Shown in pieces: positions 1 through 61,200 of a DNA stretch of 61,200 bases. Under the pieces are notes generated by a model. That model did no database searches. It worked only from the letters and a program-made list of their open reading frames with translations, and was not told where the DNA came from. The stretch is from a virus (lineage: Duplodnaviria > Caudoviricetes): positions 1 to 61,200 of the IMG/VR virus record IMGVR_UViG_3300046744_000205. One strand, 5' to 3'. How positions within the stretch are numbered: the stretch's first letter is position 1; the number at the start of each line of letters is the position of its first letter. The position numbers and the translations under genes are program-made.

Positions 1-311
1 CTGTTGTTTACAAAACGAATTGTTCTATAGGGAATCGCAGTTGCACTTGGAAGAGTAATAGTATACGTTCCTGAACCACCTGTCCAATCAAAATCAACTA
101 CGTTAACCATTTGAGTAAGTGTTGATGTTCCTCCTGCTGAAGCATTCACAAATAATACAGGCTCAAGTTTTGTAATTGACTCTGTGCAAGACTGACACAA
201 CTCATCAATGGTATACGCATCTCTCATTGCGTTAGCCTGTGAAGAACCTTTGTTCTCCGTTTCTACTCCCGGTGCTACTCCGTGAAATTTTGTCCCTGAT
301 GGTATTGGCAT
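1..311 (-). CDS. Partial allele of 59317-59781 (putative fibre/decoration protein), truncated by window edge
   Basis: ATG at 311, MPIPSGTKFHGVAPGVETENKGSSQANAM..., nearly identical to 59317-59781. Confidence 0.85.
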   Translation of the reverse strand, partial: MPIPSGTKFHGVAPGVETENKGSSQANAMRDAYTIDELCQSCTESITKLEPVLFVNASAGGTSTLTQMVNVVDFDWTGGSGTYTITLPSATAIPYRTIRFVNN

Positions 312-562
312 TATCCTGTATATTTTTTAGTCACTCTTCCTGCCTTAGTGTTAGCTACAACAGTTTTACCTTTTCTTCCTGCTCTCTTTTTCTTACGAGC
401 AGTCTTTGCTCTCTCAGCCTTAGTCATAGACTTAGCCTTAGCAAGTGGCAGACAACGGTCAGGGTTCTTCTTATCCTTGCTTGTGCCACAAGCACCCTTT
501 ATTGACCCATCCGTTCCGATGCGTACCCACTTCTCGTCTCTCCACTTTTTTAACTCACCCAT
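311..562 (-). CDS. Small basic protein (83 aa)
   Basis: ORF track; TAATG coupling at both ends; allele at 60115-60369 differs mostly synonymously. Confidence 0.85.
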   Translation of the reverse strand: MGELKKWRDEKWVRIGTDGSIKGACGTSKDKKNPDRCLPLAKAKSMTKAERAKTARKKKRAGRKGKTVVANTKAGRVTKKYTG

Positions 563-723
563 TAGTAAGACTTCTTTTCACTTCCGTAATATGGGTTGTT
601 CTTTACAGTTCCTCCCATCATTTTTGCAAAAGATGTAGCTTGTGCTTTACCTGTTGCACTATAAGGGAATTTTTTTGTTTTCATCTTGCCCGATGTAGAG
701 CACTTATATTTTACTGTTGGCAT
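562..723 (-). CDS. Small basic protein (53 aa, MPTVKYKCSTSGKMK...)
   Basis: Manual translation; TAATG overlap; allele at 60369-60530. Confidence 0.8.
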   Translation of the reverse strand: MPTVKYKCSTSGKMKTKKFPYSATGKAQATSFAKMMGGTVKNNPYYGSEKKSY

Positions 724-727
724 AATA

Positions 728-850
728 TTATTTTTTTGGCTTAGTGTGTGTGTATCCTTTTTTCTTTAAAGAATTATGCTGAGCTAATGTTTTAGCTACT
801 TTTTTAATTCCTGTTTTACTATACATATTATGTACTTTAAATTTCTTCAT
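728..850 (-). CDS. Small basic protein (40 aa, MKKFKVHNMYSKTG...), left copy only
   Basis: Manual translation; TAATG overlap with upstream gene. Confidence 0.7.
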   Translation of the reverse strand: MKKFKVHNMYSKTGIKKVAKTLAQHNSLKKKGYTHTKPKK

Positions 851-1005
851 TACTTCTTACTCTTCTTTGCGTAGTTAGGGTCTTTACAATATTTACTCGC
901 AGCCATATTCGCATATGCTGAAGGATAGGTATCAAAGGTTCGCTTTGCCCAAGCTATACCTGCTGAACATATCTTGTTACTTTTCTTTTTAGTTCTTCCT
1001 GCCAT
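850..1005 (-). CDS. Small basic protein (51 aa, MAGRTKKKSNKICSAGIAWAKRTFDTYPSAYAN...)
   Basis: Manual translation; same protein at 60535-60690. Confidence 0.8.
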   Translation of the reverse strand: MAGRTKKKSNKICSAGIAWAKRTFDTYPSAYANMAASKYCKDPNYAKKSKK

Positions 1006-1136
1006 TACTTACCTTGTCCTATGTATTGTTTCTTATAGTTCTTTGAACCTTTATTGCTTGATGTCTTAGACTTAGCGTGTACTCCGGGTCTTTTAACTTT
1101 AGCCTTTTTATTATATGAAGATAGTGTTATTGCCAT
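1005..1136 (-). CDS. Small basic protein (43 aa, MAITLSSYNKK...GQGK)
   Basis: Manual translation; diverged allele at 60827-60958. Confidence 0.8.
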   Translation of the reverse strand: MAITLSSYNKKAKVKRPGVHAKSKTSSNKGSKNYKKQYIGQGK

Positions 1137-1387
1137 TATTTTTTTCTTTTAATTCTCCCTATACCTGATCTTATTAATTGAGGTATATCTCCCAATCCTT
1201 TTAAACCTTTTACTTTAGTAGGAGCTACCCTGCCTTTTGTGTTTCTAGGATCTGAAACATTAGGAAGTTTTATTTTATCAATATCTTTGTCTTTCATCCC
1301 TATGTCATCGTATTTTTTTTTTATTTTAGCGTAATTTGCTACTAAGACATCTCCGGGCTTAACAACTTTAGGTTTTCCTTTGTTCAT
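1136..1387 (-). CDS. Small basic protein (83 aa)
   Basis: ORF track; allele at 60958-61200; upstream TAAATTTG -7 element. Confidence 0.8.
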   Translation of the reverse strand: MNKGKPKVVKPGDVLVANYAKIKKKYDDIGMKDKDIDKIKLPNVSDPRNTKGRVAPTKVKGLKGLGDIPQLIRSGIGRIKRKK

Positions 1388-1430
1388 TTTTTATTATCTT
1401 CGTATTGCAAATTTAATCAATTTTATTTTT

Positions 1431-1883
1431 ATGTCTAAACATAACCCTGCACACGATTATTTAAAATATTGGAAGGTTGTTAGGTATTTTGTAAAAGCCA
1501 AATATAAAATAAATACAGCAGATCTAGATATGCTATTATTTTTATACTCTGAAAGGTATTTCTCAAAAAGTCAATTTAAAGAATTTAATGAACTACTATC
1601 TTGGGATATAAATAGATTTAGTAGGTTACTTAGAGATGGTTGGATATCAGTATTTAGAAAACGTCAAGGTAATAAAAAAACATTGTACGAATTATCGTAC
1701 AAAGGAAAACGAATGATTTCTTCTATATATAGTAAACTAAACGGAGAAGAAATACCAATGGACCGATCAAACAACCCTATGTACGCTAAAAACGTAAGTT
1801 ATTCAGATAAGGTATACAAAAACTTTATAACAGATATGAACAAATACATTAGAGAACAACGACAACATCATTCTCAGAAATGA
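1431..1883 (+). CDS. Winged-helix (MarR-like) DNA-binding protein
   Basis: DLDMLLFLY...RLLRDGWI...YELSYKGK wHTH pattern; start chosen at MSKHNP after TATCTTCG. Confidence 0.65.
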   Translation: MSKHNPAHDYLKYWKVVRYFVKAKYKINTADLDMLLFLYSERYFSKSQFKEFNELLSWDINRFSRLLRDGWISVFRKRQGNKKTLYELSYKGKRMISSIYSKLNGEEIPMDRSNNPMYAKNVSYSDKVYKNFITDMNKYIREQRQHHSQK

Positions 1884-4972: not shown

Positions 4973-5740
4973 ATGAAAAAAACAATTGAAATTAAGTACA
5001 ACGACTTACTAGAAGTCAACAAAGTAAAGGCTTTCACTAGCCTAGAGAGACAAAACGAATTCGACAAATTCAAGAACATCACATTGGCGAAGTCATTAAT
5101 CATTGGTAAACATATCGCATGGTATGAAGACAAGGGTAGTGAGATGCTAGCAAATGACAACTTCAAGTTTGACTTTAGCAAAACCAAGGATGGGATTATC
5201 AAGACTGCTAAAGCGGGAGAGCAAACTTCAATGAATGCTAAAAATGAAAATTGCGAATTTGTTCACTTTTCTGCTCACTTTTATGGAATCAAAAAATCTG
5301 ATTCTTATGATGCGAGAAAGGTTTACAAGATTGACAAGAAAGTGATTGATGCTTTTCTAGAGCAAATCCAAAAAGATGACAATGCTCTAGCAATGAGAAT
5401 TTCATCGCTTATCAAATTTGCCAAGCAACTAGATGCGGGAGTTAGCCCAGAGGAACAAAATTCCGACGCGTCGGAAAAAGATGAAAGCAAAAAGGCTAGT
5501 CGCAAAGCGAATGTAGTTTTCAGAGTGGGAGCAAATCAGTTCACCGAGTTTGAAGATGGCAAGACCGAAATTAAGGGAGATGCTGAAAAGCTAATCGAGC
5601 AAGCCAAAGCAATGATAGCCAAGCTGAAAATGCAACAAGCTAGAGATGCAAAAAAGCAAGAGCAAGCCGACAAGAAAAAAGCGAAGTCTGATGCAAAGCG
5701 AGCAGAGGAACAAGCGAAGGCTGACATGGAAACGGCTTAA
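4973..5740 (+). CDS. First early protein, possible HTH DNA-binding protein with charged helical C-terminus
   Basis: 255-aa ORF with own promoter and terminator; FSAHFYGIKKSDSYDARKVY segment is HTH-like (weak). Confidence 0.75.
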   Translation: MKKTIEIKYNDLLEVNKVKAFTSLERQNEFDKFKNITLAKSLIIGKHIAWYEDKGSEMLANDNFKFDFSKTKDGIIKTAKAGEQTSMNAKNENCEFVHFSAHFYGIKKSDSYDARKVYKIDKKVIDAFLEQIQKDDNALAMRISSLIKFAKQLDAGVSPEEQNSDASEKDESKKASRKANVVFRVGANQFTEFEDGKTEIKGDAEKLIEQAKAMIAKLKMQQARDAKKQEQADKKKAKSDAKRAEEQAKADMETA

Positions 5741-5787: not shown

Positions 5788-6039
5788 ATAATTTTTTTTT
5801 CAAAAAACTATCATATTGTATATAATACTTTGTATTATATGATATGATTTATGTTTGATTACTATGTAATCAAACTATCATCGGCGGTCGCGGGGCAGGT
5901 CGGCGGTCGCGGGCAGATCCAAAAAAGCTTTCCGACGTGTCGGAAAATTCAACATAAATTTATCAAAAAAATAAAAACCAAAATGAAAACAAAAAATCAT
6001 CAAAAATAAAAAGAAAACAAAAAGAAAACTCTACTAAAA

Positions 6040-6097: not shown

Positions 6098-6250
6098 ATG
6101 AAAGAAATCATTGCACTTGTGTGGAAAGACAAAACAATCACGCACAAAAAAGGAAAAAAAGTTGTGACTCAATCAGTTGATGAGTTTATTTATCAGTCAT
6201 TAATAAACCAAGTCACTATTCCGACACGTCGGAAAAAGAAAGATAACTAA
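6098..6250 (+). CDS. Hypothetical protein (50 aa, MKEIIALVWKDK...)
   Basis: Manual translation downstream of promoter. Confidence 0.5.
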   Translation: MKEIIALVWKDKTITHKKGKKVVTQSVDEFIYQSLINQVTIPTRRKKKDN

Positions 6251-8344: not shown

Positions 8345-8390
8345 TTCCGACACGTCGGAAAAACAATAACAACTTAAAAATAAAAATAAA

Positions 8391-14958: not shown

Positions 14959-15005
14959 GGGGGGTTATATTCCGACACGTCGGAAACCATAACTCCCCTT
15001 TATTT
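14959..15005 (+). terminator. Terminator-like hairpin capped by the 16-bp palindrome
   Basis: GGGGTTAT...palindrome...ATAACTCCCC then TTTATTT. Confidence 0.55.
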
Positions 15006-20791: not shown

Positions 20792-20980
20792 ATGAAAATA
20801 TCTGCATACGAAAAGGAGAGATTAGCTCACATCAACTACAAGATGGGAGTTATTCACGACTTTGTAGATGACATCTATGAACTTCTAGTCGACAGAGATT
20901 TTGATGAATTGAGTGATGTGCTTGTCGAGTTAATCGAGGAGTTAAGAGAAATTCAATTATCAATTACCGATGAGCTATAG
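20792..20980 (+). CDS. Hypothetical acidic protein
   Basis: ORF track. Confidence 0.65.
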   Translation: MKISAYEKERLAHINYKMGVIHDFVDDIYELLVDRDFDELSDVLVELIEELREIQLSITDEL

Positions 20981-21686
20981 TGATTTTAGACCAAGACTAA
21001 AAGGCAACAAGAAAGATGCCTACCTAAATTTAACCAAAAACGAAAAGCGTATACTTGTTATAGGTGACCTGCACGCTCCATTTACCCTTGAAGGGTACTT
21101 TGAGTTCTGTAAGGACACCTATGCAAAGTATAATTGCAATCAAGTAATATTTATTGGTGATATAATAGACAATCATTACTCGTCATTTCACGCAACAGAC
21201 CCGGATGGGATGGGCGGTGGAGATGAGCTTGACTATGCGATTGAAGAGATTGCTAAGTGGCGAGATGAGTTTCCAAAAGCAGATGTGTGTATTGGAAACC
21301 ACGATAGAATAATAATGCGTAAGGCTTTTGATTCTCAGATTCCTGCACGTTGGATTAAAAATTACAATGATGTACTTGGAACTAATTGGAATTGGGTTGA
21401 GCAGGTTGTCTATGATGGTGTACAATACGTTCACGGTGAAGGAGGAACAGCACGAACTAAATCTAAGAATGATATGATGTCAACCGTGCAGGGGCATATT
21501 CATACACAGGCATATACCGAATGGAATGTAGGTAAGAACTTTAAGATATTCGGAATGCAGGTAGGTTGTGGAGTTGATGGTAAGTCATACGCAGCAGCGT
21601 ATGCTAAGAACTTCAAGAAGCAAGCTATTGGATGTGGTGTAGTATTTGGTGGACATACAGCAATTAACTGTATGATGGAGCTATGA
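20970..21686 (+). CDS. Calcineurin-like metallophosphoesterase
   Basis: GDLH, GDIID, GNHD, HG, GHIH motifs. Confidence 0.92.
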   Translation: MSYSDFRPRLKGNKKDAYLNLTKNEKRILVIGDLHAPFTLEGYFEFCKDTYAKYNCNQVIFIGDIIDNHYSSFHATDPDGMGGGDELDYAIEEIAKWRDEFPKADVCIGNHDRIIMRKAFDSQIPARWIKNYNDVLGTNWNWVEQVVYDGVQYVHGEGGTARTKSKNDMMSTVQGHIHTQAYTEWNVGKNFKIFGMQVGCGVDGKSYAAAYAKNFKKQAIGCGVVFGGHTAINCMMEL

Positions 21687-22117
21687 CAAAAAGATTTGAA
21701 TCAAAAAAAGATTTGGATAGAGAGTCCAAAGCAATAAAAAAATTCTTAAGTGCATTTAATGGTTCGGCAATCAAGCTAGGACCACACGATATAGACTACA
21801 AGATATTTGACAATGACGGTAATGCTATATGCTATGCTGAGGTAAAGGGTAGGATAAGAGATATGAAAGATGCATATCCACTACCGATAGCTGCTAGAAA
21901 ATTAGTTAAATTAGCAGACAAAGAACTTGAAGGAGTTATTATATGGGCTTGCAATGATGGCATCATATACGGTCAACCTTCTAAGCTAAAAGGAACAGTA
22001 AGGTACGCAGGCAGAATTCCAAGACCGGGAGCAGCTAATGACCAAGAGATAATGATATACTACAGCAAACAAGACAATTTAAAATGGAAAACAGACCAAA
22101 CTACGAAGAATTCATAA
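21683..22117 (+). CDS. PD-(D/E)XK (restriction-like) nuclease
   Basis: E...IDY...AEVKGR. Confidence 0.6.
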   Translation: MTKRFESKKDLDRESKAIKKFLSAFNGSAIKLGPHDIDYKIFDNDGNAICYAEVKGRIRDMKDAYPLPIAARKLVKLADKELEGVIIWACNDGIIYGQPSKLKGTVRYAGRIPRPGAANDQEIMIYYSKQDNLKWKTDQTTKNS

Positions 22118-46050: not shown

Positions 46051-46095
46051 TTGATTTGATTTTATGCAAAATTAAACAAAAAATAATTATGTTTT

Positions 46096-51033: not shown

Positions 51034-51593
51034 AGGCTCATTGTTATTTGATGGTCGTATACTCTATATAGCTTTTCATCATCAACCGTAAACTCATACT
51101 CGCTATCAGGAGTAAAGCTAATTCTATCCCCGGGCTTTAATCCCATAGATGTCAGATACTCGTTAGGATATTTCATTATACCTACTAACGGCTCTTCTAC
51201 ACTATTCTTATATATAACAGAATCCTCTTTTTTGATAGGCTCTACAAAACAATATCTATCGTGTGCGTTCCAACCCTTATCATTCTTATACATAAAGAAC
51301 TGTTCGTTGTCTACAAAAAATAGGTCATCCTTAAAAAAGCTCCTTCCGCTTTTTTGCCTACCTTTCATATCGTTATAAAACTTAAATACGTTGTGATGTA
51401 CGAGTAAGGTGTCTCCTACCTTGACTCCTCCTGTGTAGCCGATTGGAAGCTCGACAACCTCAGCATATCTGTTTGAAAACATATGGTCTTCTTCAGATGT
51501 ACTAACGACAAGCTCTAGTCCTGCTATCTCTCTTGTATTGTCGTATCGTCTTCCTTTTAATGGCTTTACTATAAAGTAAAACGGTGATTTCAT
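51030..51593 (-). CDS. Tandem GroES-like co-chaperonin
   Basis: Two GroES-like halves: FIVKP...AEVVELP...VKVGDTLLV and DRYCFVEP...LKPGDRISF...EFTVDDEKLYRVYDHQI. Confidence 0.6.
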   Translation of the reverse strand: MKSPFYFIVKPLKGRRYDNTREIAGLELVVSTSEEDHMFSNRYAEVVELPIGYTGGVKVGDTLLVHHNVFKFYNDMKGRQKSGRSFFKDDLFFVDNEQFFMYKNDKGWNAHDRYCFVEPIKKEDSVIYKNSVEEPLVGIMKYPNEYLTSMGLKPGDRISFTPDSEYEFTVDDEKLYRVYDHQITMSL

Positions 51594-51820
51594 TAAAAGT
51601 TTATGTTGTATTCAATAGATACGGGTACGGTTTCATTAAACTCTTTCCAAACAAATACTTCTTGCCCGGACTGTATCCATATCTCGATTGATTTTTTTTC
51701 TTTATTAAATTTAATTAAATGTATTGTATGACTATTATTCAGGACAGACTGACCTGTTATATAGTGCATAGCACCCGACTTATAGTCAGGACCAATAGAT
51801 ATCTTTCTAATAATGCCCAT
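51593..51820 (-). CDS. Hypothetical protein (MGIIRKISIG...)
   Basis: TAATG coupling at both ends. Confidence 0.7.
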   Translation of the reverse strand: MGIIRKISIGPDYKSGAMHYITGQSVLNNSHTIHLIKFNKEKKSIEIWIQSGQEVFVWKEFNETVPVSIEYNINF

Positions 51821-52077
51821 TAATAAACAACGCACACAACGCTAGAGCTTGTTCCGTCTCCTGCGTTTCTGTACATTCTACCTGTCGCTAGTCCTGCTGA
51901 TTTAGCAGCAGCATTAGTTGCGTATACAGGAAGGGTTACTGTTGATTGAGCTAATAATGCAAGTATAGAATCTACTGTGTAGTTCTTAGTTTTATTTGCA
52001 TCTTGTTCGTCAGAACCTATTAATATATCTGTTAGGTTAACTTGACCTGATATTGGGTATGTACTAATTATCGCCAT
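51820..52077 (-). CDS. Putative small structural protein
   Basis: ORF track. Confidence 0.6.
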   Translation of the reverse strand: MAIISTYPISGQVNLTDILIGSDEQDANKTKNYTVDSILALLAQSTVTLPVYATNAAAKSAGLATGRMYRNAGDGTSSSVVCVVY

Positions 52078-52294
52078 TTGTTACTTTTCCTGTTTGCACG
52101 TTGATGACTGCATCATCTCCGTATTTTTCTAATAATTTTTTCTCTTCCTTAATGTAAGCAGCTTTCATTGACTCTATCTCTTTTAATAAAGCATCCTGTG
52201 CAATGAAGGTGTCAGCTATTCTGATTTTAACATTGTTATACTCTGTTACTAATCCTTGCAATAGATCTAGCTCATCTTTACTTAATTCTTTCAT
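52064..52294 (-). CDS. Hypothetical coiled-coil protein
   Basis: Start at MKELSK after TATATTTG. Confidence 0.65.
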   Translation of the reverse strand: MKELSKDELDLLQGLVTEYNNVKIRIADTFIAQDALLKEIESMKAAYIKEEKKLLEKYGDDAVINVQTGKVTNGDN

Positions 52295-52339
52295 TTGATT
52301 ATATTTTTTACAAATATAAAACTTTTTTATCTTTGCAGT

Positions 52340-52612
52340 ATGAAGAGTCCACAAGTAATTATTTTTATAGCTTTATATTCACTTATAGCTACAGCCATTA
52401 TAACTAATCTATTGTTTGTTAAAAAAGCAGAGAATAGGATTATATCACCTAAACACAATATTATATCTACCGATACGGTATATATGTCTATTGATAGCTT
52501 GGATTCTAAAAGAGATACAATTAAATTATACTATGAAACAAAAGTTAGTAATTATCATATACTTCCTTCTTCTGAACGTATCAGTCTATTCGCAAGTCGC
52601 ATTAATAGATAA
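52340..52612 (+). CDS. Membrane-anchored protein, possible spanin-like component
   Basis: N-terminal TM helix; own promoter; beside endolysin. Confidence 0.5.
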   Translation: MKSPQVIIFIALYSLIATAIITNLLFVKKAENRIISPKHNIISTDTVYMSIDSLDSKRDTIKLYYETKVSNYHILPSSERISLFASRINR

Positions 52613-52913
52613 TAACGGAGATACATTGGTTGCCATCACTCTTGAGCAGATGGATAACATATACGTTGAGCTAATCCAAAAAGATAGCCTAATGGAACAA
52701 GCTACTATAAGCTCTTCTAAGGAAGCTAAACTATATGAGCTAGTAACTATATCCGAAAATAACCTAAAGTCCTGTGAGAAGGTCTTAAAAGACGTAGGAG
52801 ACAGTAATATCTATTTACTGTCTGAAAACAAAAAGAAAGATAGTAAACTTAAAAGGACTAGAAAGGTTGCCATATATACTACTATTTTTGCTATACTTAG
52901 TATCCTTCTTTAG
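52533..52913 (+). CDS. Signal peptide + coiled coil + C-terminal TM protein, possible spanin-like component
   Basis: MKQKLVIIIYFLLLNVSVYSQ; overlaps preceding gene. Confidence 0.5.
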   Translation: MKQKLVIIIYFLLLNVSVYSQVALIDNNGDTLVAITLEQMDNIYVELIQKDSLMEQATISSSKEAKLYELVTISENNLKSCEKVLKDVGDSNIYLLSENKKKDSKLKRTRKVAIYTTIFAILSILL

Positions 52914-53301
52914 ATACATCAAAACTTGGGCAAGCCTTGTTAGAATATTCATTGTGACCGTGAACGGTGCTGCCCGGATATCTTTTCTTTAGTTCATCTA
53001 TAAGCCATATAAGGGCTTCTTTTTGTGCGTGTGTTCTTGTGTCTTTAGGATTCTTATAAGACTTATCCATTCCTCCCGCATATGCGATTCCTATGCTATC
53101 TTTGTTGTGTCCTCTAGTGTGAGCACCTACCTTTGATTCGGGTCTACCTACCTCAACCGTTCCGTTCAATGTTATAAGATAGTGGTATCCTACATCTGAG
53201 AAGTTTCTAGCTAAATGCCAAGTTCTTACCTCTCCTACTGTAACGTCTCTACCTTCAGGGGTAGCTGTGCAATGCACAATGATTCTGTTTATGTCTCTCA
53301 C
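52897..53301 (-). CDS. Endolysin, N-acetylmuramoyl-L-alanine amidase (T7 lysozyme-like)
   Basis: IIVHCTAT, GYHY, GAH, SIGI, HGH, KACPSF. Confidence 0.95.
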   Translation of the reverse strand: MRDINRIIVHCTATPEGRDVTVGEVRTWHLARNFSDVGYHYLITLNGTVEVGRPESKVGAHTRGHNKDSIGIAYAGGMDKSYKNPKDTRTHAQKEALIWLIDELKKRYPGSTVHGHNEYSNKACPSFDVSKEGY

Positions 53302-53720
53302 TTGATTTGCTTTTTAATATCTTTGATTTGTGTAATGGATTCTTTAAATTTATCTATAAAAGAGTAGCCTTTTAAAACTACCCAAGATTCATCCATTGAT
53401 TTTACCTCATTTAGAATGAGGACCAAAGATACTATTTTAGTTGAAAAGAAATCAAAATCTAAAATACTTTTTATTAATTCATTTAATATTAACGTATCTA
53501 AAAGAAATACTAAAATAACAACGCCCAAGTAACCTACAGTTTTTGGAACATATCCCTTTCTAAAATCTCTACTAGTTACAGGCTTATTTTGCTTTTTAGC
53601 TTTAGCTATTCCAAATGCTGTATCTAAAATTGTAGATAGACCTACTACAAGTAGCAATCCACCAACCGGTGCAAAAAATAAATATAAACTTTTCAATATG
53701 CTACTTAGAGTTATCTTCAT
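53298..53720 (-). CDS. Holin
   Basis: Three hydrophobic segments, LDTAFGI, EVKSMDE; coupled to endolysin. Confidence 0.8.
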   Translation of the reverse strand: MKITLSSILKSLYLFFAPVGGLLLVVGLSTILDTAFGIAKAKKQNKPVTSRDFRKGYVPKTVGYLGVVILVFLLDTLILNELIKSILDFDFFSTKIVSLVLILNEVKSMDESWVVLKGYSFIDKFKESITQIKDIKKQIK

Positions 53721-53722
53721 CG

Positions 53723-54073
53723 TTATTCTTCTTCAGGCGTTTCACAATACTCAGGATACTGAGTACAATATGTTTTAACCCATAAATTATTATCTCCTGC
53801 GAACGTATGTACAACATCATCAGGCTCAGGATAAACAGCTTCACTTGAAAACTTATCAGAGTCTGTGTTCCATAATATATCTACACTCCATAGTGTACTT
53901 AGATTCTCGCAGTTACCTTCGTCATCGTAGGCATAGCATATGTGCCCTATCTCTGCTACAGCATTTACATCAGACGTATACGAAACATTACCTTCTGCAT
54001 CAGTAGTTGTAATACTTTTCTTGGCTGTCTGCCAAGCTGCTTCATTTGTAAATTCGTATTTCTTAAAAATCAT
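53723..54073 (-). CDS. Fibre-associated protein
   Basis: Coupled to 54070-55629. Confidence 0.55.
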   Translation of the reverse strand: MIFKKYEFTNEAAWQTAKKSITTTDAEGNVSYTSDVNAVAEIGHICYAYDDEGNCENLSTLWSVDILWNTDSDKFSSEAVYPEPDDVVHTFAGDNNLWVKTYCTQYPEYCETPEEE

Positions 54074-55629
54074 AATGTTGTTAATGTTATTAGTTCAGCA
54101 TTTGTAAGTATTTCTTTAAATAAAATTAATGATTTTATTCGTTGTTTTTTACCTTGTAAGTTTGGGTCTTGTAATGCAACTGTGTCAAGACTACTTGGAA
54201 TGCTTCCACTCGTGTATGTTTTCACCAAAGAGCCATTTAAATATATTTTAAAATTGTTTGCTTGGTAAGTTATTGCAATTTTATTTGTTTCTAAAAATGT
54301 CACAAGTGTTGAATTGTTAATCTCTATTGCACCACCTACTTGCACAATAAATGCGATGTATGATCCGTTTCTATAAGCAAGAATTCTATTACTTGTTGAG
54401 TTACCCAAATTAACTTCTACAAATGTAAAATTACTGTCTTCTGTCAAATCAAATTCTGAATATAAAGTGCCTTGTGTTTGACCTATTAATGCAGATGCAC
54501 TTGTTAATATGCCACTATCTGCGGTGCGAGTTACTGTGCTTCCGCTTGTTGGGATGATGGATGTAGAATAGCTGCCAACCTCTGCTTGTGCGTGTTGCAA
54601 ATATATGAAATCCCCATTGCTTGTATTAACGCTTCCAACTGCATTTGCAATATAAACTTGAACAGACCCCGAACCACTTGCAACAGACATATTTAATCTA
54701 TACCATTCATTACCCACACTTTCAATACTTGCACTTGTAACACTTGCTTGACTTCCAATAGAGCCTGATTCAAGATTATAATATACAACTCCGCTTCCTA
54801 ATACAACCGCAACAAATTTTGAATTTCCGGCTTTAGCATAAATTGAAAAAGTATATGCACCACTTGAGAGAGAATTTGAATTTATTCTATCATTATTGCT
54901 TCCGTTACCCACTAATTTCCAAGCATCTGTTGAGTTAAAAATTCCGCTTTGATTTCCAATAATTGTCGCATTCGTTAGAACCCAAGTAGTGTTTAACTGA
55001 TTAGATTGAAGTATATTATTCGTTCTCTGAGGTTCAAGTAATAAACTCGGACAACTTCCATCGCTATAATCCAAGCGAGGTACATCGTTTTCGATTACTT
55101 CTTTTACTGATACGTTGTCGATTGATAAAGTTGTTCCACTTGCTCCTCTTGCTTGAAGATAAAGAGTTGTATTTATGCTTGCAACTCCATAAAGACTAAA
55201 TGTTCCATTAGATGAAACCTCTTGTGTTGTGCCACCCGCACCCAAAACAACAAGAATACCACCTTTCACGTAATTAGATATTGTAAATGTAACCTTATAT
55301 TTTTTCCCAATTTCAACAACACTTGACTGTGTTATATTAGTTCCGTTAGGGGTTGAGGAATAATTTAAAGTTCCGTTTGATATAGTAACTCCGTTTGCGT
55401 TAACTCCGTTCCAATTACTGCTACTTGCAAAATCTCCATTGGTTACTAATTCCGTTGTGCTAACTACCGAAGCAGTCTCTATCAACCCCTCACTATTTAC
55501 CCTCGTTCCGCTTGATGAACGTGAGAAAGTGAAGTCGCCATTTCCATTACTCGGAATTTGCGAATATAGTTTTGTTGATTTATACCCACTTGGTATCTGA
55601 ACTAAACTTGCCTTGTCTAATAAACTCAT
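54070..55629 (-). CDS. Tail fibre/receptor-binding protein with carbohydrate-binding-like domains
   Basis: FTFSRSS, ELVTNGDF...IDNVSVKE, PRLDY, LLLEPQRTN, TSIIPTSGSTVTR, LamG-like C-terminus. Confidence 0.75.
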   Translation of the reverse strand: MSLLDKASLVQIPSGYKSTKLYSQIPSNGNGDFTFSRSSSGTRVNSEGLIETASVVSTTELVTNGDFASSSNWNGVNANGVTISNGTLNYSSTPNGTNITQSSVVEIGKKYKVTFTISNYVKGGILVVLGAGGTTQEVSSNGTFSLYGVASINTTLYLQARGASGTTLSIDNVSVKEVIENDVPRLDYSDGSCPSLLLEPQRTNNILQSNQLNTTWVLTNATIIGNQSGIFNSTDAWKLVGNGSNNDRINSNSLSSGAYTFSIYAKAGNSKFVAVVLGSGVVYYNLESGSIGSQASVTSASIESVGNEWYRLNMSVASGSGSVQVYIANAVGSVNTSNGDFIYLQHAQAEVGSYSTSIIPTSGSTVTRTADSGILTSASALIGQTQGTLYSEFDLTEDSNFTFVEVNLGNSTSNRILAYRNGSYIAFIVQVGGAIEINNSTLVTFLETNKIAITYQANNFKIYLNGSLVKTYTSGSIPSSLDTVALQDPNLQGKKQRIKSLILFKEILTNAELITLTTL

Positions 55630-55796
55630 ATCGCATCTAAATTGTTAATTATATCTATCACACAATCAAGTGACTCTACCACTCCTCCATCAGCAATGAC
55701 ACGATCCTTGTAGTCGTTAGCAATTTTTGCTCCCGGACCTACGTCTCCACCCTGCCCTGTTAGTGCGTTTGATATGCCTATTAGAAGTCCTATCAT
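55626..55796 (-). CDS. Small hypothetical protein (56 aa)
   Basis: Manual translation MIGLLIGISNAL...; ATGA coupling. Confidence 0.55.
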   Translation of the reverse strand: MIGLLIGISNALTGQGGDVGPGAKIANDYKDRVIADGGVVESLDCVIDIINNLDAI

Positions 55797-56057
55797 TTAC
55801 CAAAGAGCAATAATCTCAGATGCTGCTGTTCCTGTTGCAAAAACTTTTACAACCTGTACAGGAATAAATCCTACAGGTGCGTTTTTAAATGTAACGTCAT
55901 CTCCACCTGATGTTGTGACCTTAAGGTCTCCTGCAACACCAACGTAAAGAACACATCCGTTGTTTACTCCTGCTCCTCCACCTACTGTTGGTATCTCAGC
56001 CGTGTCAGATGGCGTAACTGCTGCTGCTCTATATGCTTGTAATTTTTGATATGCCAT
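55797..56057 (-). CDS. Small structural protein
   Basis: AAAVTPSD, LYVGVAGDLKV, PVQVVKVFATGT. Confidence 0.65.
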   Translation of the reverse strand: MAYQKLQAYRAAAVTPSDTAEIPTVGGGAGVNNGCVLYVGVAGDLKVTTSGGDDVTFKNAPVGFIPVQVVKVFATGTAASEIIALW

Positions 56058-56227
56058 AATTTATTCTTCTTCTTTTTCTTCTGCCGGGAATACATCTCTT
56101 ATTGCATCCACGATTGCAGCTACGTCATCTAAACTATAACATCCTTTTTGAATTGCTAGGTTTAATGCCGTTACGATTGTTTGCTTACTTTCTTCCATTT
56201 TATTTAATTTAATTAGTTAGTGTTAAT

Positions 56228-56563
56228 TTACCAAGGTAAAGGAGTGTCCTCAGGGCTAACAGGAGGTGTAATCTCGCTGTCAATCATTCCGCCAACTGAT
56301 GCTTCTAAGTTTGAAACTCCGTCTTCTCCTAGTTCCTCTTTAACCCAACCTACAACCATTGCATCGGTTAAGTCTGCGTAAGGTGTAAAGCTCTCGCCCT
56401 GTACCACTTCAAATGAAGCTGTTCCACTCAATGAAGCTGTGTAGGTCTCGCCTCCACTTTCTTCTGTTCCTACCACTTCGTAGATTGAATCTACAACGTA
56501 ATCTGTTTCTTTGTCTGTATCTATAGTGTATAGATTGGTGACTGTCCAAGTATAATTTTTCAT
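56228..56563 (-). CDS. Fibre-associated/assembly protein
   Basis: YTWTV...FTPYADLT...VGWVK...LPW. Confidence 0.65.
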   Translation of the reverse strand: MKNYTWTVTNLYTIDTDKETDYVVDSIYEVVGTEESGGETYTASLSGTASFEVVQGESFTPYADLTDAMVVGWVKEELGEDGVSNLEASVGGMIDSEITPPVSPEDTPLPW

Positions 56564-56582
56564 TTTACAAATATAATATTTT

Positions 56583-58712
56583 TTATGCTGCTACTATTGG
56601 TATTTTATAATTCACTCCGTTTATTTTAACAGTCCACGTTTTGTCTACCGTTACTGTTTCAGTAGTTATTGTTCCTGCGTTAACACTAGCACTACCTACA
56701 ACAAATTGATTGTTTGCTGTTGCTGTTGCTGCCCTACCTAAAATAACACTACCACTAAAGTTACCACTAGCCGCTTCCATACCAACTGCTGTATTACTAA
56801 TACCGCTAGTATTATCAGATATAGCTTTATAACCTATTCCTGTATTATTAGAACCTGTATTATCTTTTAATGATTGCCAACCTATTGCTGTAGAATTTGA
56901 ACCTGTAGCGTTAGAATACAATGCTAATTGCCCCATTGCAACGTTATTATTTCCTGTTGAATTATAAAACATTGCTTGATGACCACTTGCTGCATTATTA
57001 GAACCTGTGGTGTTATTTGCTAACGCTTGATAACCTACTGATGTAAGATTTGCACCTGTTGTATTACTTAATAAATTTTCACGTCCTATAGATACATTAC
57101 TTGTACCTGTAGTATTAGTAACTAATGCCTGTGAACCAATTGCAGTATTACTACTCGCTGTTGTATTTGATTTTAATGCTTGATAACCTATTGCAGTATT
57201 ATTATAACCTGTTGTGTTAGCATAAAGGGCTTGATAACCGACTGCTGCGTGACTACTACCTATAGTGTTAAGTTCTAATGCTTGATTTCCAACTGCTGTA
57301 TTAGCGTTTGCGGTGGTGTTATTGTATAATGCCGCATAACCAAATGCTGAATTATTACCACCTGTAGTATTTAAATATAATGCCTGTCTACCAACTGCTG
57401 TATTTGTACCTCCTGTAAGGTTATTACTTAATGCTAAATAACCTACTGCTACGTTATTTGCACCTGTAGTGTTATATCTTAAAGAATCATAACCAAATGC
57501 TGAATTATTAGCACCTGTGGTATTTTGACGCATCGCATTAGAACCACTTGCAGTATTGTTAGAAGCTGTGGTATTTTGACGCAATGCTTGATAACCAATT
57601 GCGGTATTTAAAACCCCTGTTGAATTTGAAAATAATGCTTCACTTCCAATTGATACGTTATTAATACCTGTAGTATTACTAAATAATGCTCTATTACCGA
57701 ATGAGGAATTATTATTTCCTGTAGTATTTAAATATAATGCCTGTCGACCTACTGCTGTATTTGTCCCACCTGTGGTATTAGCGAATAATGCTTGATAACC
57801 ACTTGCGACATTATTAGAACCTGTTTGATTGCCCCTTAATGCCTGTAAACCTACTGCAACATTATTAGTACCTGTTGTGTTACCACGTAATGATTCATAA
57901 CCATAAGCTGCATTAGATGAACCTGAAATGTTAAAAACCATTGATTGATAACCACTTGCAACATTATTAGAACCTGTGGAATTAGTATATAATGCTGAAA
58001 TTCCTACTGCTGTATTATTAGAACCTGTAGTGTTTGTACTTAATGCTTCACTTCCAAATGCTGAATTGCCACTTGCTGTTGTATTACTTTTTAATGCATC
58101 TCTACCAATTGCTGTATTACTAGAACCTGTTGTGTTAGCCCTTAATGCGTGATAACCACTTGCGACATTGCTAACTCCTGTGGTATTAAATAATAATGTT
58201 TGATAACCATTAGCAGTATTGTTAGCTCCTGTGGTATTTGAATTTAATGATTGATACCCCGATGCTGTATTATTACTACCTGTTGTGTTTAAAAGTAAAG
58301 CTCTTTGACCTATTGCAGTATTAAAACTACCTGTTGTATTAGTAAGTAATGCCCTAGAACCCATTGCTGTGTTTTGACCACCTGTTGTATTACTTATTAA
58401 CGCATCATTACCAAATGCAGCGTTAGTTATTACACTTCCTGCTCCTGTATTCCATACAGATGTTCCGTTGTCGTTTAGTAAGCTGTCTGCAATTGTATGT
58501 GCACCTGTAGCAGTATTGTTAATAAACTTAGCGACCTTATTAGCTGTACCTGTCCCTGATATATTATCAGCAGGAACACCGCCAACAGTATCTGCAATGT
58601 CTTGCATTGTAAAATACTCTGCTCTTGCATTTGTTGAAGATGAGCCTTTATCTACTATGGTGACACCTGTTGTGTCTCCTCTAAACTGTGTATTACTTGG
58701 TATAATAGCCAT
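56583..58712 (-). CDS. Fibre protein with 14-aa repeats (YadA-head-like beta-roll)
   Basis: About 40 repeats of N-T-A-x-G-x-x-A-L-x-x-N-T-T-G type. Confidence 0.8.
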   Translation of the reverse strand: MAIIPSNTQFRGDTTGVTIVDKGSSSTNARAEYFTMQDIADTVGGVPADNISGTGTANKVAKFINNTATGAHTIADSLLNDNGTSVWNTGAGSVITNAAFGNDALISNTTGGQNTAMGSRALLTNTTGSFNTAIGQRALLLNTTGSNNTASGYQSLNSNTTGANNTANGYQTLLFNTTGVSNVASGYHALRANTTGSSNTAIGRDALKSNTTASGNSAFGSEALSTNTTGSNNTAVGISALYTNSTGSNNVASGYQSMVFNISGSSNAAYGYESLRGNTTGTNNVAVGLQALRGNQTGSNNVASGYQALFANTTGGTNTAVGRQALYLNTTGNNNSSFGNRALFSNTTGINNVSIGSEALFSNSTGVLNTAIGYQALRQNTTASNNTASGSNAMRQNTTGANNSAFGYDSLRYNTTGANNVAVGYLALSNNLTGGTNTAVGRQALYLNTTGGNNSAFGYAALYNNTTANANTAVGNQALELNTIGSSHAAVGYQALYANTTGYNNTAIGYQALKSNTTASSNTAIGSQALVTNTTGTSNVSIGRENLLSNTTGANLTSVGYQALANNTTGSNNAASGHQAMFYNSTGNNNVAMGQLALYSNATGSNSTAIGWQSLKDNTGSNNTGIGYKAISDNTSGISNTAVGMEAASGNFSGSVILGRAATATANNQFVVGSASVNAGTITTETVTVDKTWTVKINGVNYKIPIVAA

Positions 58713-58720
58713 AATTTTTT

Positions 58721-58876
58721 TTATTTATCGTAAGGGAATATTCTATTTAGTGTATCTTTTCTTTCAGCACATCCACAAGACTTACCTGTGGCTTTAGCTA
58801 CTGTATCTACAACTTTTTTTATTCCGGTTGCTTTTGTAATTTTTTCTACTGTATCTCCTAATCCTTTTGATTTCAT
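58721..58876 (-). CDS. Small protein (51 aa, MKSKGLGDTVEKITKATGIK...CGC)
   Basis: Manual translation; ATGA coupling. Confidence 0.75.
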   Translation of the reverse strand: MKSKGLGDTVEKITKATGIKKVVDTVAKATGKSCGCAERKDTLNRIFPYDK

Positions 58877-59010
58877 TTGCATTTACATTCTTTATTTGGA
58901 CACTTAGTCACGTCAAACATAAGACTCAACATAGTAGCATTCCATTTACATTGGAACTTGCACCACTCGTGCTGAATCCACATACCTGCTTTTATTAATA
59001 GTTTTCCCAT
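58873..59010 (-). CDS. Small Cys-rich protein (45 aa)
   Basis: Start MGKLLIK 5 nt after TATATTTG. Confidence 0.6.
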   Translation of the reverse strand: MGKLLIKAGMWIQHEWCKFQCKWNATMLSLMFDVTKCPNKECKCK

Positions 59011-59023
59011 TGTTGCAAATATA

Positions 59024-59314
59024 CTAATATTTTCCTCGTCTATTTTTTGGTGAGCTCTTAGTTGAACCTCCTTTTCCTGCCCATAATTTCTTACAAGACC
59101 AATAACGTGCACTTAACTTGTTTGTTGCTGTACCACACTTGTGACGAGCCTTAAATGACTTGCGTGCAGCAGCAGAATAGTTGTGACCATATCCCTTAGC
59201 ACCAAAGTGAATTAACTTCTCCTTGCCACCGGCACAAGCCTTAACCATTTTTTTCTTACCTGCTCTATCGGATCTCATTACCCGATTACATTTCATTTTA
59301 CTTTTCGTTGCCAT
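59024..59314 (-). CDS. Small basic protein
   Basis: KLIHFGAKG, ARKSFKARHKC, SARYWSCKKLW. Confidence 0.8.
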   Translation of the reverse strand: MATKSKMKCNRVMRSDRAGKKKMVKACAGGKEKLIHFGAKGYGHNYSAAARKSFKARHKCGTATNKLSARYWSCKKLWAGKGGSTKSSPKNRRGKY

Positions 59315-59316
59315 AG

Positions 59317-59781
59317 TTATGTTGATTTAGCTTGTATTACTATCCATTCAGTACCATCAGACCAAACTGCACATCCGTTATATGCTTTGTTAATTTCATA
59401 TGAAGCACCTCCATCTATTGTTTCACCCGAAGGTGCAGCAATCGCTATTTTATTACTTGCAGTAACTGTACTGTTGTTTACAAAACGAATTGTTCTATAG
59501 GGAATCGCAGTTGCACTTGGAAGAGTAATAGTATACGTTCCTGAACCACCTGTCCAATCAAAATCAACTACGTTAACCATTTGAGTAAGTGTTGATGCTC
59601 CTCCTGCTGAAGCGTTAATAAATAATACAGGCTCAAGTTTTGTAATTGACTCTGTGCAAGACTGACACAACTCATCAATGGTGTACGCATCTCTCATTGC
59701 GTTAGACTGTGCAGAGCCTTTGTTCTCTGTTTCTACTCCCGATGCTACTCCGTGAAATTTTGTCCCTGATGGTATTGGCAT
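59317..59781 (-). CDS. Putative fibre/decoration protein
   Basis: N-terminus homologous to 56583-58712; TITLPSA...ETIDG...SDGTEW C-terminal module. Confidence 0.7.
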   Translation of the reverse strand: MPIPSGTKFHGVASGVETENKGSAQSNAMRDAYTIDELCQSCTESITKLEPVLFINASAGGASTLTQMVNVVDFDWTGGSGTYTITLPSATAIPYRTIRFVNNSTVTASNKIAIAAPSGETIDGGASYEINKAYNGCAVWSDGTEWIVIQAKST

Positions 59782-59782
59782 A

Positions 59783-60118
59783 TCAATAATTAAATAAAGT
59801 GTTATTAGAACTGTTATTAGTTTTCTTAGTTTTTTTAGGTTTAATTTTTTTTACGTCCTTGCCTTTAGTAACTTTTCTTTTAATTAATTTATCAGGGGTA
59901 GTAGAGCCTGAGTGTCCATACCCCACATAGGTATCTACCTTCTTACGCTTTACCCCTTCATCATCTATAAAAACTTGCTTTTCTCTTCTTATTGGACCGA
60001 AGCGTGTTGATATTGATTTATATCCCGGACTAACAATTTCATTTATAGGGTCAAATCCTTTTGACACCTTTCTAGAAATTATGTTTTTCCTTCTTGCTTT
60101 CTTAAATGGGTTTTTCAT
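59783..60118 (-). CDS. Basic protein (111 aa), right copy only
   Basis: ORF track; absent at equivalent junction (311). Confidence 0.7.
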   Translation of the reverse strand: MKNPFKKARRKNIISRKVSKGFDPINEIVSPGYKSISTRFGPIRREKQVFIDDEGVKRKKVDTYVGYGHSGSTTPDKLIKRKVTKGKDVKKIKPKKTKKTNNSSNNTLFNY

Positions 60119-60369
60119 CGCTTTGTAAATTTTTTAGTTACTCTTCCTGCTTTAGTGTTAGCCACGACAGTTTTACCTTTCCTCCCTGCTCTCTTTTTCT
60201 TACGAGCAGTCTTTGCTCTTTCAGACTTAGTCATTGACTTAGCCTTAGCAAGTGGCAGACAGCGGTCAGGGTTCTTCTTATCCTTGCTTGTACCACAAGC
60301 ACCCTTTATTGACCCATCTGTTCCGATGCGTACCCACTTCTCGTCTCTCCACTTCTTTAACTCACCCAT
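60115..60369 (-). CDS. Small basic protein, allele of 311-562
   Basis: Near-identical translation. Confidence 0.85.
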   Translation of the reverse strand: MGELKKWRDEKWVRIGTDGSIKGACGTSKDKKNPDRCLPLAKAKSMTKSERAKTARKKKRAGRKGKTVVANTKAGRVTKKFTKR

Positions 60370-60530
60370 TAGTAAGACTTCTTCTCACTTCCGTAGTATG
60401 GGTTGTTCTTTAAACTCCCTCCTGTCATTTTTGCGAAAGCTGATGCTTTTGCTTTACCTGTTGCACTATAAGGGAATTTTCTTGTTTTCATCTTGCCCGA
60501 TGTAGAGCACTTATATTTTACTGTTGGCAT
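60369..60530 (-). CDS. Small basic protein, allele of 562-723
   Basis: MPTVKYKCST... Confidence 0.8.
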   Translation of the reverse strand: MPTVKYKCSTSGKMKTRKFPYSATGKAKASAFAKMTGGSLKNNPYYGSEKKSY

Positions 60531-60534
60531 AATA

Positions 60535-60690
60535 TTACTTTTTACTTTTTTTTGCGTAGTTAGGATCTTTACAATATTTACTCGCAGCCATATTCGCATA
60601 TGCTGAAGGATAGGTATCAAAGGTTCGCTTTGCCCAAGCTATACCTGCTGAACATATCTTATTACTTTTCTTTTTAGTTCTTCCTGCCAT
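60535..60690 (-). CDS. Small basic protein, allele of 850-1005
   Basis: Manual translation. Confidence 0.8.
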   Translation of the reverse strand: MAGRTKKKSNKICSAGIAWAKRTFDTYPSAYANMAASKYCKDPNYAKKSKK

Positions 60691-60830
60691 TACTTTACTT
60701 TATTATAAACCTGTAAAGCTATTGGCGTAAAAAGTTTTTGAGCCAAAGAACTAGTTGGTTCATTTGTATTAATTTTGTCTTTGTGTGTTGGTGCTAATGG
60801 GAATCCCAAGTTTCTTTTGTAATTATTCAT
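60690..60830 (-). CDS. Small protein (46 aa, MNNYKRNLGFPLAPT...), right copy only
   Basis: Manual translation; ATGA and TAATG coupling. Confidence 0.65.
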   Translation of the reverse strand: MNNYKRNLGFPLAPTHKDKINTNEPTSSLAQKLFTPIALQVYNKVK

Positions 60831-60958
60831 CTTCCTTGTCCTTTATATATTTTTTTATAATTCTTGGAGCTTTTTAATTTTGAGCTTTTAGATTTAGCGT
60901 GCACTCCTTTACGCTTAATCTTCTGTTTTTTACTATATGAAGTTAATGTTATTGCCAT
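60827..60958 (-). CDS. Small basic protein, diverged allele of 1005-1136
   Basis: MAITLTSYSKK...GQGR. Confidence 0.8.
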   Translation of the reverse strand: MAITLTSYSKKQKIKRKGVHAKSKSSKLKSSKNYKKIYKGQGR

Positions 60959-61200
60959 TATTGTTTTCTTTTATTGACGATTCTTCCTATACCTGATCTT
61001 ATTAATTTAGGTATATCTCCTAATCCTCTTAACCCTTTTACTTTAGTAGGAGCTACCCTGCCTTTTGTGTTTCTAGGATTTGAAACATTAGGAAGTTTTA
61101 TTTTATCAATATCTTTGTCTTTCATCCCGATGTCATCGTATTTCTTTTTTACTTTAGCGTAATTTGCTACTAAGACATCTCCGGGCTTAACAACTTTATG
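60958..61200 (-). CDS. Partial allele of 1136-1387
   Basis: KVVKPGDVLVANYAK...; 5' end cut by window edge. Confidence 0.8.
   Translation of the reverse strand, partial: HKVVKPGDVLVANYAKVKKKYDDIGMKDKDIDKIKLPNVSNPRNTKGRVAPTKVKGLRGLGDIPKLIRSGIGRIVNKRKQ

Follow-up and report, generated by a model that had tools for sequence, protein, structure and literature searches.

Does this phage genome really lack the four-letter word CCAG/CTGG, and if so, was the word removed under pressure from the host or from an enzyme of the phage itself? The window, that is, the whole 61,200-nucleotide stretch analysed here (IMGVR_UViG_3300046744_000205), is a complete phage genome. The initial annotation had claimed that the word is nearly absent and that it is broader than CCWGG and non-palindromic, and had offered two alternatives: a host defence with a 4-bp asymmetric target, or a phage enzyme attacking CCAG in host DNA, with the nuclease at 21683-22117 and the ART-like domains of the virion protein as candidates. 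As shown below, its observation is confirmed, while its interpretation is only partly supported.

We first counted the word on both strands. CCAG occurs once (5447-5450, + strand) and CTGG never in the 61,200 bases (GC 0.349), while CCTG occurs 272 times, CAGG 144, CCGG 59 and CTAG 157. Under a maximum-order Markov null, 1 CCAG/CTGG was observed against 232.2 expected (z -15.2), which makes it the most under-represented of all 4-mers. In 200 synonymous-codon shuffles within 79 crude ORFs covering 93% of the genome, CCAG was 1 against 121.3 +/- 8.0 (lowest shuffle 95) and CTGG 0 against 83.7 +/- 8.0 (lowest 65), i.e., about 205 in total. Amino-acid content and codon usage therefore do not explain the loss. 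In addition, CCTG/CAGG is over-represented (416 against 290), which fits synonymous replacement.

The purge is uniform along the genome, whereas the purges of GATC and CATG are confined to parts of it, which suggests a pressure that travels with the lineage. On the other hand, CCAG is not the only avoided word. The absence of GGCC, also claimed by the initial annotation, is real (0 against 35), and GCGC (1/30), CASTG (1/44), CTGCAG (0/15), AACGTT (1/14), GGNNCC (0/36), CAGCTG (1/15), CGCG (3/21), CATG (38/193) and GATC (99/205) are depleted as well.

Several other explanations are already contradicted by the counts, and we regard them as very unlikely. Avoidance of Dcm/EcoRII sites (CCWGG), of which CCAG is part, would confine the loss to CCAGG/CCTGG, but although CCWGG is indeed 0, CCAGA, CCAGC and CCAGT are missing as well as CCAGG; by contrast, two other loci (L331 and L332) lack only CCAGG. 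Escape from Type III restriction needs the loss of only one orientation, but both are lost in the window and in all purged loci. Very-short-patch repair is known to shift CTAG and CCAG frequencies in E. coli (PMC4687349), but it raises CCAG rather than removing it, and mutational bias of this kind or deamination would have to account for a purge that holds against the codon-shuffle null. An assembly or sequencing artefact is contradicted by the presence of the purge in more than 100 independent assemblies with intact reading frames.

The features to which the following analyses refer are these:

1..61200 (no strand), the whole phage genome, purged of CCAG/CTGG on both strands
5447..5450 (+), the only CCAG in the genome, inside the early ORF 4973-5740 and 10 nt upstream of the 16-bp palindrome TTCCGACGCGTCGGAA (5461-5476)
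20792..20980 (+), a conserved 62-aa early gene that marks the start of the variable nuclease slot in relatives, according to synteny tables
20970..21686 (+), a metallophosphoesterase gene immediately upstream of the nuclease (Pfam Metallophos; PHROG 221)
21683..22117 (+), the last gene of the early/replication block, encoding a 144-aa PD-(D/E)XK nuclease ("type A"; Pfam PF24579 PDDEXK_14) with a predicted Hjc-like fold

We considered whether the sole CCAG is a conserved functional target, such as an origin or pac site, and rejected this, because four complete relatives (G005, G006, G008 and G009; G labels denote terminase-sampled genomes) have no CCAG at all.

How far does the trait extend among relatives? 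Of 85 sequences (83 related loci sampled by terminase, the window and one extra genome piece), 50 are CCAG-free, 25 are normal and 10 are intermediate. That is, the trait is clade-wide but patchy, and the terminase tree needs at least 9-12 changes of state.

We then carried out the correlation between depletion and the 21683-22117 gene that had been proposed beforehand, and it came out strikingly positive. When 79 window ORFs were compared with 6 purged and 6 unpurged complete or near-complete relatives, only 21683-22117 tracks the purge. The neighbouring metallophosphoesterase does not, being present at 83% identity in the purged G005 and at 79% in the unpurged G002C198. Among terminase-sampled genomes whose slot is covered, 8 of 8 purged ones carry either type A or a second nuclease, the G009-type, there (the window, MW202828, G005-G009 and G022), and 0 of 6 unpurged ones do (G001C21, G001C10, G001C9, G003C65, G011 and G002C198). 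Four purged fragments lacking the nuclease also lack the slot's neighbour gene, and are thus uninformative.

Sampling by the gene itself gave the same picture. A search of IMG/VR found 347 stretches, of which the best 80 loci (57-94% identity) were kept. Of these, 78 are below 6% of expected CCAG, and the other 2 have 7/107 and 10/77, although GATC, CATG, CTAG, GGCC and GCGC vary among the same loci. All 14 loci with the G009-type nuclease at the slot are also purged, while all 10 loci with an HNH nuclease there have normal CCAG. Divergent "type B" homologues have E53 mostly replaced by L, K55 replaced by I or V, and the GGRxPRxG loop deleted. They sit in genomes with normal CCAG at 13 of 13 loci, plus L310 and G002C198 (L labels denote individual loci). 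In one MAG bin, type A sits on a CCAG-free contig (0 against 10.9 expected) and type B on a normal one (10 against 9.9). Moreover, a variant of type A (EVKGKSS with an altered loop; L275 and L294) goes with a changed avoided word, since all 30 residual sites are CCAGR and none is CCAGY. These later counts mostly come from direct word searches rather than Markov expectations, and all counts are of contigs, not of phylogenetically independent events.

What kind of protein is type A? The profile match to PF24579 is 35.1 bits against a cut-off of 25 (E 1.9e-8). D36/D38 and E53-V-K55 are conserved in carriers with purged genomes, and in the AlphaFold2 model (pLDDT 88.9) the strands lie at 39-42 and 48-56. 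However, the copy of G008 has K55 replaced by S and lacks the loop, yet its genome is 0/272. The best fold match in PDB is archaeal Hjc, a Holliday-junction resolvase, though the match is modest (E 0.013, TM 0.48-0.58), and this points to a generic phage function. The G009-type matches Hjc with E 3e-5 and TM 0.50-0.62. An hhalign comparison of the two nucleases found no similarity (probability 0.1), so their kinship rests only on shared topology and shared best fold match. A sequence profile of type A against PDB chains gave only a chance match (E 0.91), PHROGs gave only an unnamed family, BFVD fold matches are unnamed viral proteins, and a homodimer prediction gave no verdict and is not used as evidence. 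No cultured phage in the phage database carries either nuclease. No DNA methyltransferase family was found among the 30 window proteins scanned, out of about 79 ORFs, and 0 of 401 genomes of the class of a Flavobacteriaceae MAG (G001), a sample rather than the whole class, matched the profile of the family.

Based on the above analyses, we tentatively prefer, with less than even confidence, the reading that the early nuclease of the phage is the selective agent. In this view, a minimal Hjc-like PD-(D/E)XK enzyme, with no partner methyltransferase among the window proteins scanned, would cut or nick duplex DNA at CCAG (or CCAGY in one lineage) and so break up host DNA or DNA of competing phages every few hundred bases. 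The phage genome would be immune because every CCAG/CTGG has been removed by synonymous and conservative substitutions, and lineages that lost, replaced or inactivated the nuclease would let CCAG drift back to normal frequency. What our data establish is the purge, its spread through the clade, and its strict co-occurrence with this nuclease subfamily and with a same-fold nuclease at the same slot; sequence-specific cleavage at CCAG, the target of that cleavage and the direction of evolutionary change are inferred, the cleavage only from the association with the purge, and causality is not shown. In favour of this reading, no intact type A gene was found in an unpurged genome, whereas a neutral passenger gene should have survived some of the changes of state on the terminase tree. 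Nevertheless, two families without detectable sequence similarity would need the same specificity, intact relatives of the G009-type family (30-41% identity) occur in unpurged phages, and a CCAG-rich phage that acquired such a nuclease would destroy itself.

The main rival, to which we give almost as much weight, is host restriction. Hosts of the purged phages, probably Flavobacteriia or other Bacteroidota, would carry a restriction system, most plausibly Type IIS-like, that cuts at single unmethylated CCAG sites, the phages would have escaped by losing every site, and the slot nuclease would be an ordinary resolvase whose allele is linked to, or adapted to, that host pool. The prior favours this explanation, since restriction-site avoidance is the established cause of such purges and the same genomes lack GATC, CATG, CTAG, GGCC, GCGC, CASTG, GGNNCC and others in patchy combinations. 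Other short asymmetric words are purged in relatives with no link to this gene family: CCCG is 1/40 in G002C198, 4/34 in G001C9, and 0 in L008, L022, L255-258 and L264, and ACAGC, CATCC and GGTGA are purged in some. We tried to tie the CCCG purge to type B, but this failed, as L252-254 carry type B with normal CCCG and G001C9 is CCCG-poor without the family. Calleviruses of Cellulophaga show CCAG as their most depleted 4-mer (136/232 and 131/231, i.e., 0.57-0.59) with no homologue of either nuclease in the phage database. CCAG-specific methyltransferases are reported in H. pylori A45 and T. phaeum (PMC10689673), a CCAG Type II motif marked "not unique" is listed for Sporosarcina P32a (PMC5930826), and Flavobacterium strains carry 9-15 R-M systems (PMC11837570).

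On the other hand, no CCAG-cutting enzyme was found in the papers searched, no host is known for any purged phage, and MAG labels of phage contigs (Aliivibrio, archaea and others) are too inconsistent to name one. Host restriction does not explain why an intact type A gene is never seen in an unpurged genome despite at least 9 state changes, why the homologue in unpurged genomes has lost the E-x-K motif, or why a nuclease variant coincides with a shift of the avoided word to CCAGY. In addition, CCAG is purged in carriers spanning GC 0.32-0.44 with very different sets of other avoided sites, which implies diverse hosts.

A combined model, which we consider unlikely, is that hosts methylate CCAG and the phage nuclease is methyl-directed, like the small enzymes NhoI or DpnI, so that it would destroy methylated host DNA while lack of CCAG keeps phage DNA both unmethylated and uncut. 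NhoI, the Eco15I N-terminal domain and DpnI do appear among the fold matches (E 0.06-0.1), and CCAG methyltransferases exist (PMC10689673), but these matches are weak and rank below the resolvases, and nothing in the data bears on methylation.

If the phage enzyme is the agent, this would be self-immunity by loss of the target site rather than by DNA modification, a new route to telling self from non-self that would be widespread in uncultured aquatic phages, given the 347 stretches encoding relatives of the nuclease family in IMG/VR. It would also give a very small, solitary enzyme with a 4-bp asymmetric specificity, of interest as a frequent cutter or nickase, and explain how these abundant phages could dispose of host or rival phage DNA. 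If the host is the agent, the data point to an uncharacterised and very widespread CCAG-directed defence in aquatic Bacteroidota, as purged relatives make up more than half of the terminase-sampled set. In either case, the strict gene-word association is a directly testable lead and shows that avoided words can be used to assign specificities to orphan nucleases.

Among known systems, restriction-site avoidance in virulent phages (PMC6286503) shares the near-total loss of a short word by synonymous change, the patchiness among relatives and the accompanying loss of several palindromic sites; staphylococcal phage K, which is free of GATC, is a classic case. What differs here is that the word is a 4-bp asymmetric one for which we found no cutting enzyme in print, and that the loss tracks a phage gene rather than any known host. 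In halovirus Hardycor1 (PMC7911831), asymmetric tetramers including CCAG (odds 0.11), CAGC and CATC are also strongly under-represented, but this is an archaeal virus with depletion rather than absence, and we saw no link to a viral nuclease in the text consulted. The CCAG-specific methyltransferase of H. pylori A45 (PMC10689673) has the same 4-bp word as its target, though it comes from an unrelated bacterium, and its type and any partner nuclease are not stated in the text consulted. Type IIS enzymes with 4-bp asymmetric sites (MnlI CCTC, AciI CCGC, Sth132I CCCG) show that single words of this kind can be restriction targets, and CCCG is itself purged in some relatives; however, they are cellular enzymes with partner methyltransferases, and none is known to us for CCAG. 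T7 endonuclease I (gp3) and archaeal Hjc (PDB 2wcw) are likewise small PD-(D/E)XK nucleases of about 140-150 aa, and T7 gp3 is both a resolvase and a contributor to host DNA breakdown, but these enzymes are structure-specific, not sequence-specific, with modest fold similarity (TM 0.48-0.61) and 12-16% sequence identity. Finally, chlorella viruses encode frequent-cutting nicking enzymes such as Nt.CviPII (CCD), i.e., virus-encoded nucleases with a very short asymmetric target used against host DNA. Those viruses protect themselves by methylation with a cognate methyltransferase, while here no methyltransferase was found among the proteins scanned, and protection would come from loss of the site.

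We have first examined whether the near-complete absence of CCAG/CTGG is real. In the complete phage genome record of 61,200 bases (GC 0.349), CTGG never occurs and CCAG occurs only once, close to the first of six copies of the inverted-repeat word CCGAC-NN-GTCGG (one exact, CCGACGCGTCGG, and five with one mismatch), which are all found in the early region:
5447-5450, the only CCAG, 10 nt upstream of the first inverted-repeat copy
5463-5474, + strand, inverted-repeat copy
5932-5943, + strand, inverted-repeat copy
6221-6232, + strand, inverted-repeat copy
8347-8358, + strand, inverted-repeat copy
10886-10897, + strand, inverted-repeat copy
14972-14983, + strand, inverted-repeat copy
No such copy is expected by chance. 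These words are probably early regulatory or terminator sites.

A maximum-order Markov model expects 232 copies of CCAG/CTGG, and it is the most under-represented of all tetramers (z -15). We have also shuffled the synonymous codons 200 times within each of 79 crude ORFs covering 93% of the genome, and obtained 121 +/- 8 CCAG and 84 +/- 8 CTGG, with no shuffle below 95 and 65, respectively. Protein sequence and codon usage therefore do not explain the absence. In addition, CCTG/CAGG is over-represented (416 against 290), as expected if CCA-G and xCT-GGx were replaced by synonymous neighbours. Avoidance of CCWGG cannot account for the purge, because CCAGA, CCAGC and CCAGT are missing too. Thus the observation made in the initial annotation, a genome almost without CCAG/CTGG, is confirmed, and its side remark that GGCC is lacking is also right (0 against 35 expected). 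However, CCAG is one of many avoided words: GCGC (1/30, observed/expected), CASTG (1/44), CTGCAG (0/15), AACGTT (1/14), GGNNCC (0/36), CAGCTG (1/15), CATG (38/193) and GATC (99/205).

Within the genome, the losses of GATC and CATG are regional. Both are absent from the core structural block (36000-45000) and rare downstream of it (45000-61200), but are present at roughly half of expectation or less elsewhere (1-36000), while the absence of CCAG, the single copy aside, extends everywhere. A relative with 98% terminase identity (locus L003; L numbers denote the sampled loci) has neither GATC nor CATG, which suggests a mosaic history for these two sites, unlike CCAG.

The genome has GroEL, a Sak annealing protein, a DUF3799 exonuclease, a primase-helicase, an SNF2 helicase, a P22-like portal and a large terminase. 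The nearest named record is an uncultured podovirus, MW202828.1, at about 70% nucleotide identity over 5 kb. Cultured relatives, including Flavobacterium elemo phages, Maribacter Panino, and Cellulophaga and Tenacibaculum phages, are distant, with terminase identity of 46% or less. On present evidence, the host is probably in Flavobacteriia or Bacteroidota.

To see how far the purge extends, we searched IMG/VR with the terminase, found at least 600 related stretches and kept the best 80 loci. The counted set consisted of 85 sequences, i.e., the window, those 80 loci, MW202828 in two pieces, Panino and elemoC. Of these, 50 have CCAG/CTGG below 6% of expectation (for example 0/105, 0/103 and 0/102 in 22-kb loci), 10 are intermediate and 25 are normal. 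Both orientations are lost together, so this is not the one-orientation escape seen with Type III enzymes. On a FastTree terminase tree of 83 rows, the purged state needs at least 12 changes, 9 of which are forced by well-supported branches, while shuffled labels need 26.5 on average. The state is therefore heritable, but has switched many times.

Of 39 loci from MAG bins, only one is fully purged. Locus L112 (CP070801.1, labelled an Aenigmatarchaeota chromosome) holds, at about 6-16 kb, a 10-kb CCAG-free block that includes a terminase relative; the block is flanked by CCAG-rich sequence and the locus holds 300 N. It looks like a phage fragment scaffolded into a MAG 'chromosome'. In locus L086, a terminase relative (80% identity) lies inside a contig of 3,001,278 bases from a Saprospiraceae MAG with normal CCAG, which could be an integrated or misassembled phage and so a possible host lead. 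The cultured phages are not purged. However, in the two Calleviruses, Cellulophaga phage phi38:1 (136/232, or 0.59 of expectation) and Calle_2 (131/231, or 0.57), CCAG is the most under-represented tetramer and its depletion is spread evenly along the genome.

The complete relatives (G numbers denote genomes, C numbers their contigs) fall into two clean groups. The purged ones are G005 (0/289), G006 (0/272), G007 (2/334), G008 (0/272), G009 (0/195) and MW202828 (4/288). Those not purged are G004 (276/303), G001C21 (328/334), G001C10 (326/309), G002C198 (412/384) and G003C65 (343/340), while G001C9 is intermediate at 153/287. In G003C65, the terminase match (37620-39851) has 4 in-frame stops (1 TGA, 3 TAA), which could be assembly errors or a decaying gene. 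The purged genomes also lack GATC, CATG and often CTAG, and in G005, G006, G007 and G009 asymmetric 5-mers are purged in different combinations: ACAGC (0/66 and 1/50), CATCC (1/64), GGTGA (1/39) and AGCTC (2/46, 10/72 and 1/36). This suggests several Type IIS-like pressures on this phage group.

We have then compared all the 79 window ORFs with these 12 genomes by tblastn, and only one tracks the purge:
21683-22117, last gene of the early block, a putative PDDEXK endonuclease (type A)
It is present in MW202828 and G005-G008 at 44-63% identity, and absent from G001C21, G001C10, G001C9 and G003C65. G002C198 has a 35% copy (type B), and the contig of G004 ends before the slot. The gene follows a conserved 62-aa gene and, in some genomes, a metallophosphoesterase. 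Its product matches Pfam PF24579, 'phage putative PDDEXK endonuclease', at 35.1 bits against a cut-off of 25. At the same slot, the purged G009 has a different 145-aa protein with a clear D...E-L-K motif (G009-type), the unpurged G003C65 and G001C21 have an HNH, endonuclease-VII-like protein, and G001C10 and G001C9 have only a long phosphoesterase.

We have also sampled by the gene instead of by the terminase. A six-sequence type A profile found 347 stretches in IMG/VR, of which the best 80 loci (57-94% identity) are all purged, 78 of them below 6% of expectation and the other two at 7/107 and 10/77. Among these loci GATC, CATG, CTAG, GGCC and GCGC vary freely, and GC ranges from 0.32 to 0.44. 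All 14 loci found for the G009-type have 0-3 CCAG. The G002C198 copy found 44 loci, of which the 13 most like it (58-100% identity) have 62-150 CCAG each, which is normal, while the remainder are type A by motif and are purged. The 10 close relatives found for the HNH protein have 79-114 CCAG each. One MAG bin holds both forms, with type A on a contig with 0 CCAG against 10.9 expected, and type B on a contig with 10 against 9.9. Nine further unpurged records have no member of the family, though several of them are incomplete. Among the terminase-sampled genomes whose slot is covered, 8 of 8 purged ones carry type A or the G009-type predicted nuclease, while 0 of 6 unpurged ones do. All these association counts are of contigs, not of independent events.

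In the alignment, carriers with purged genomes keep D36, D38 and E53-V-K55-G-R together with a basic loop WGGRxPRxGxxND, with the exception of G008, whose type A copy has K55 replaced by S and no loop, yet whose genome is 0/272. In type B, E53 is mostly L, K55 is I or V, and the loop is deleted; this is probably a dead nuclease. A variant in loci L275 and L294 (EVKGKSS with an altered loop) sits in genomes with partial depletion (21 against 88 expected in L294, and 9 sites in L275). All 30 residual sites there are CCAGA or CCAGG, and the avoided word in that lineage is therefore CCAGY.

The structure models of type A (pLDDT 88.9) and the G009-type protein (pLDDT 81.5) are confident, and show the same order of helices and strands. 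For both, the best solved match is the archaeal Holliday-junction resolvase Hjc, with E 0.013 and TM 0.48-0.58 for type A, and E 3e-5 for the G009-type protein. Small restriction enzymes (NhoI, DpnI, PvuII), RecU and SPARDA nucleases rank lower. The predicted fold is thus a minimal PD-(D/E)XK nuclease nearest to resolvases, and on its own does not tell a resolvase from a sequence-specific enzyme.

On the other hand, we do have evidence that cuts against the phage enzyme as the selective agent, besides the G008 copy. The G009-type family has intact members at 30-41% identity in unpurged phages. In G003C65 and G001C21 these lie between the primase and helicase genes. Loci L331 (G003:C78) and L332 (G003:C12) also carry a 39-41% relative, and in these two contigs CCAGC and CCAGT are plentiful (32 and 36 matches) and only CCAGG is absent, which means CCWGG avoidance. 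The two Calleviruses are partly depleted, and no homologue of either nuclease was found in the phage database. A second asymmetric tetramer, CCCG/CGGG, is absent or nearly so in a different subset of relatives that have normal CCAG (G002C198, i.e., L165-L167; G001C9, i.e., L161-L164; L005, L008, L012, L022, L251, L255-L258 and L264), with no tie to this nuclease family. Furthermore, CCAG methyltransferases exist in bacteria (PMC10689673, PMC5930826), CCAG is under-represented in a halovirus (PMC7911831), and Flavobacterium strains carry many R-M systems (PMC11837570). Acquiring a CCAG nuclease would also be lethal for a CCAG-rich phage, so gains are hard to picture.

Overall, host restriction has the stronger prior, and these phages clearly suffer it at many sites. 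It needs an extra assumption, though, to explain why an intact type A gene is never found in an unpurged genome despite repeated switches of state, why the homologue in unpurged genomes has lost its catalytic motif, and why a change in the nuclease goes with a change in the avoided word. The phage-enzyme model explains these directly, but in turn it must assume that two very different Hjc-like proteins share one specificity, and that so small a protein reads an asymmetric 4-bp word. While the purge and its co-occurrence with these genes are seen directly in the sequences, cleavage at CCAG by the predicted nuclease is only inferred. We tentatively place the phage-enzyme model first, at somewhat less than even likelihood, with host restriction only slightly behind it; a methyl-directed hybrid is unlikely, and so are the remaining readings. 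The interpretation in the initial annotation, which had offered both a host defence and a phage enzyme and had named 21683-22117 as a candidate, is thus supported in part.

In the literature searched, we have found no report of a CCAG-free phage clade, nor of a phage protected from its own nuclease by loss of the target word, although supplementary material and papers outside the library searched may hold such a report. Avoidance of sites is itself known, and so are phage nucleases that attack host DNA.
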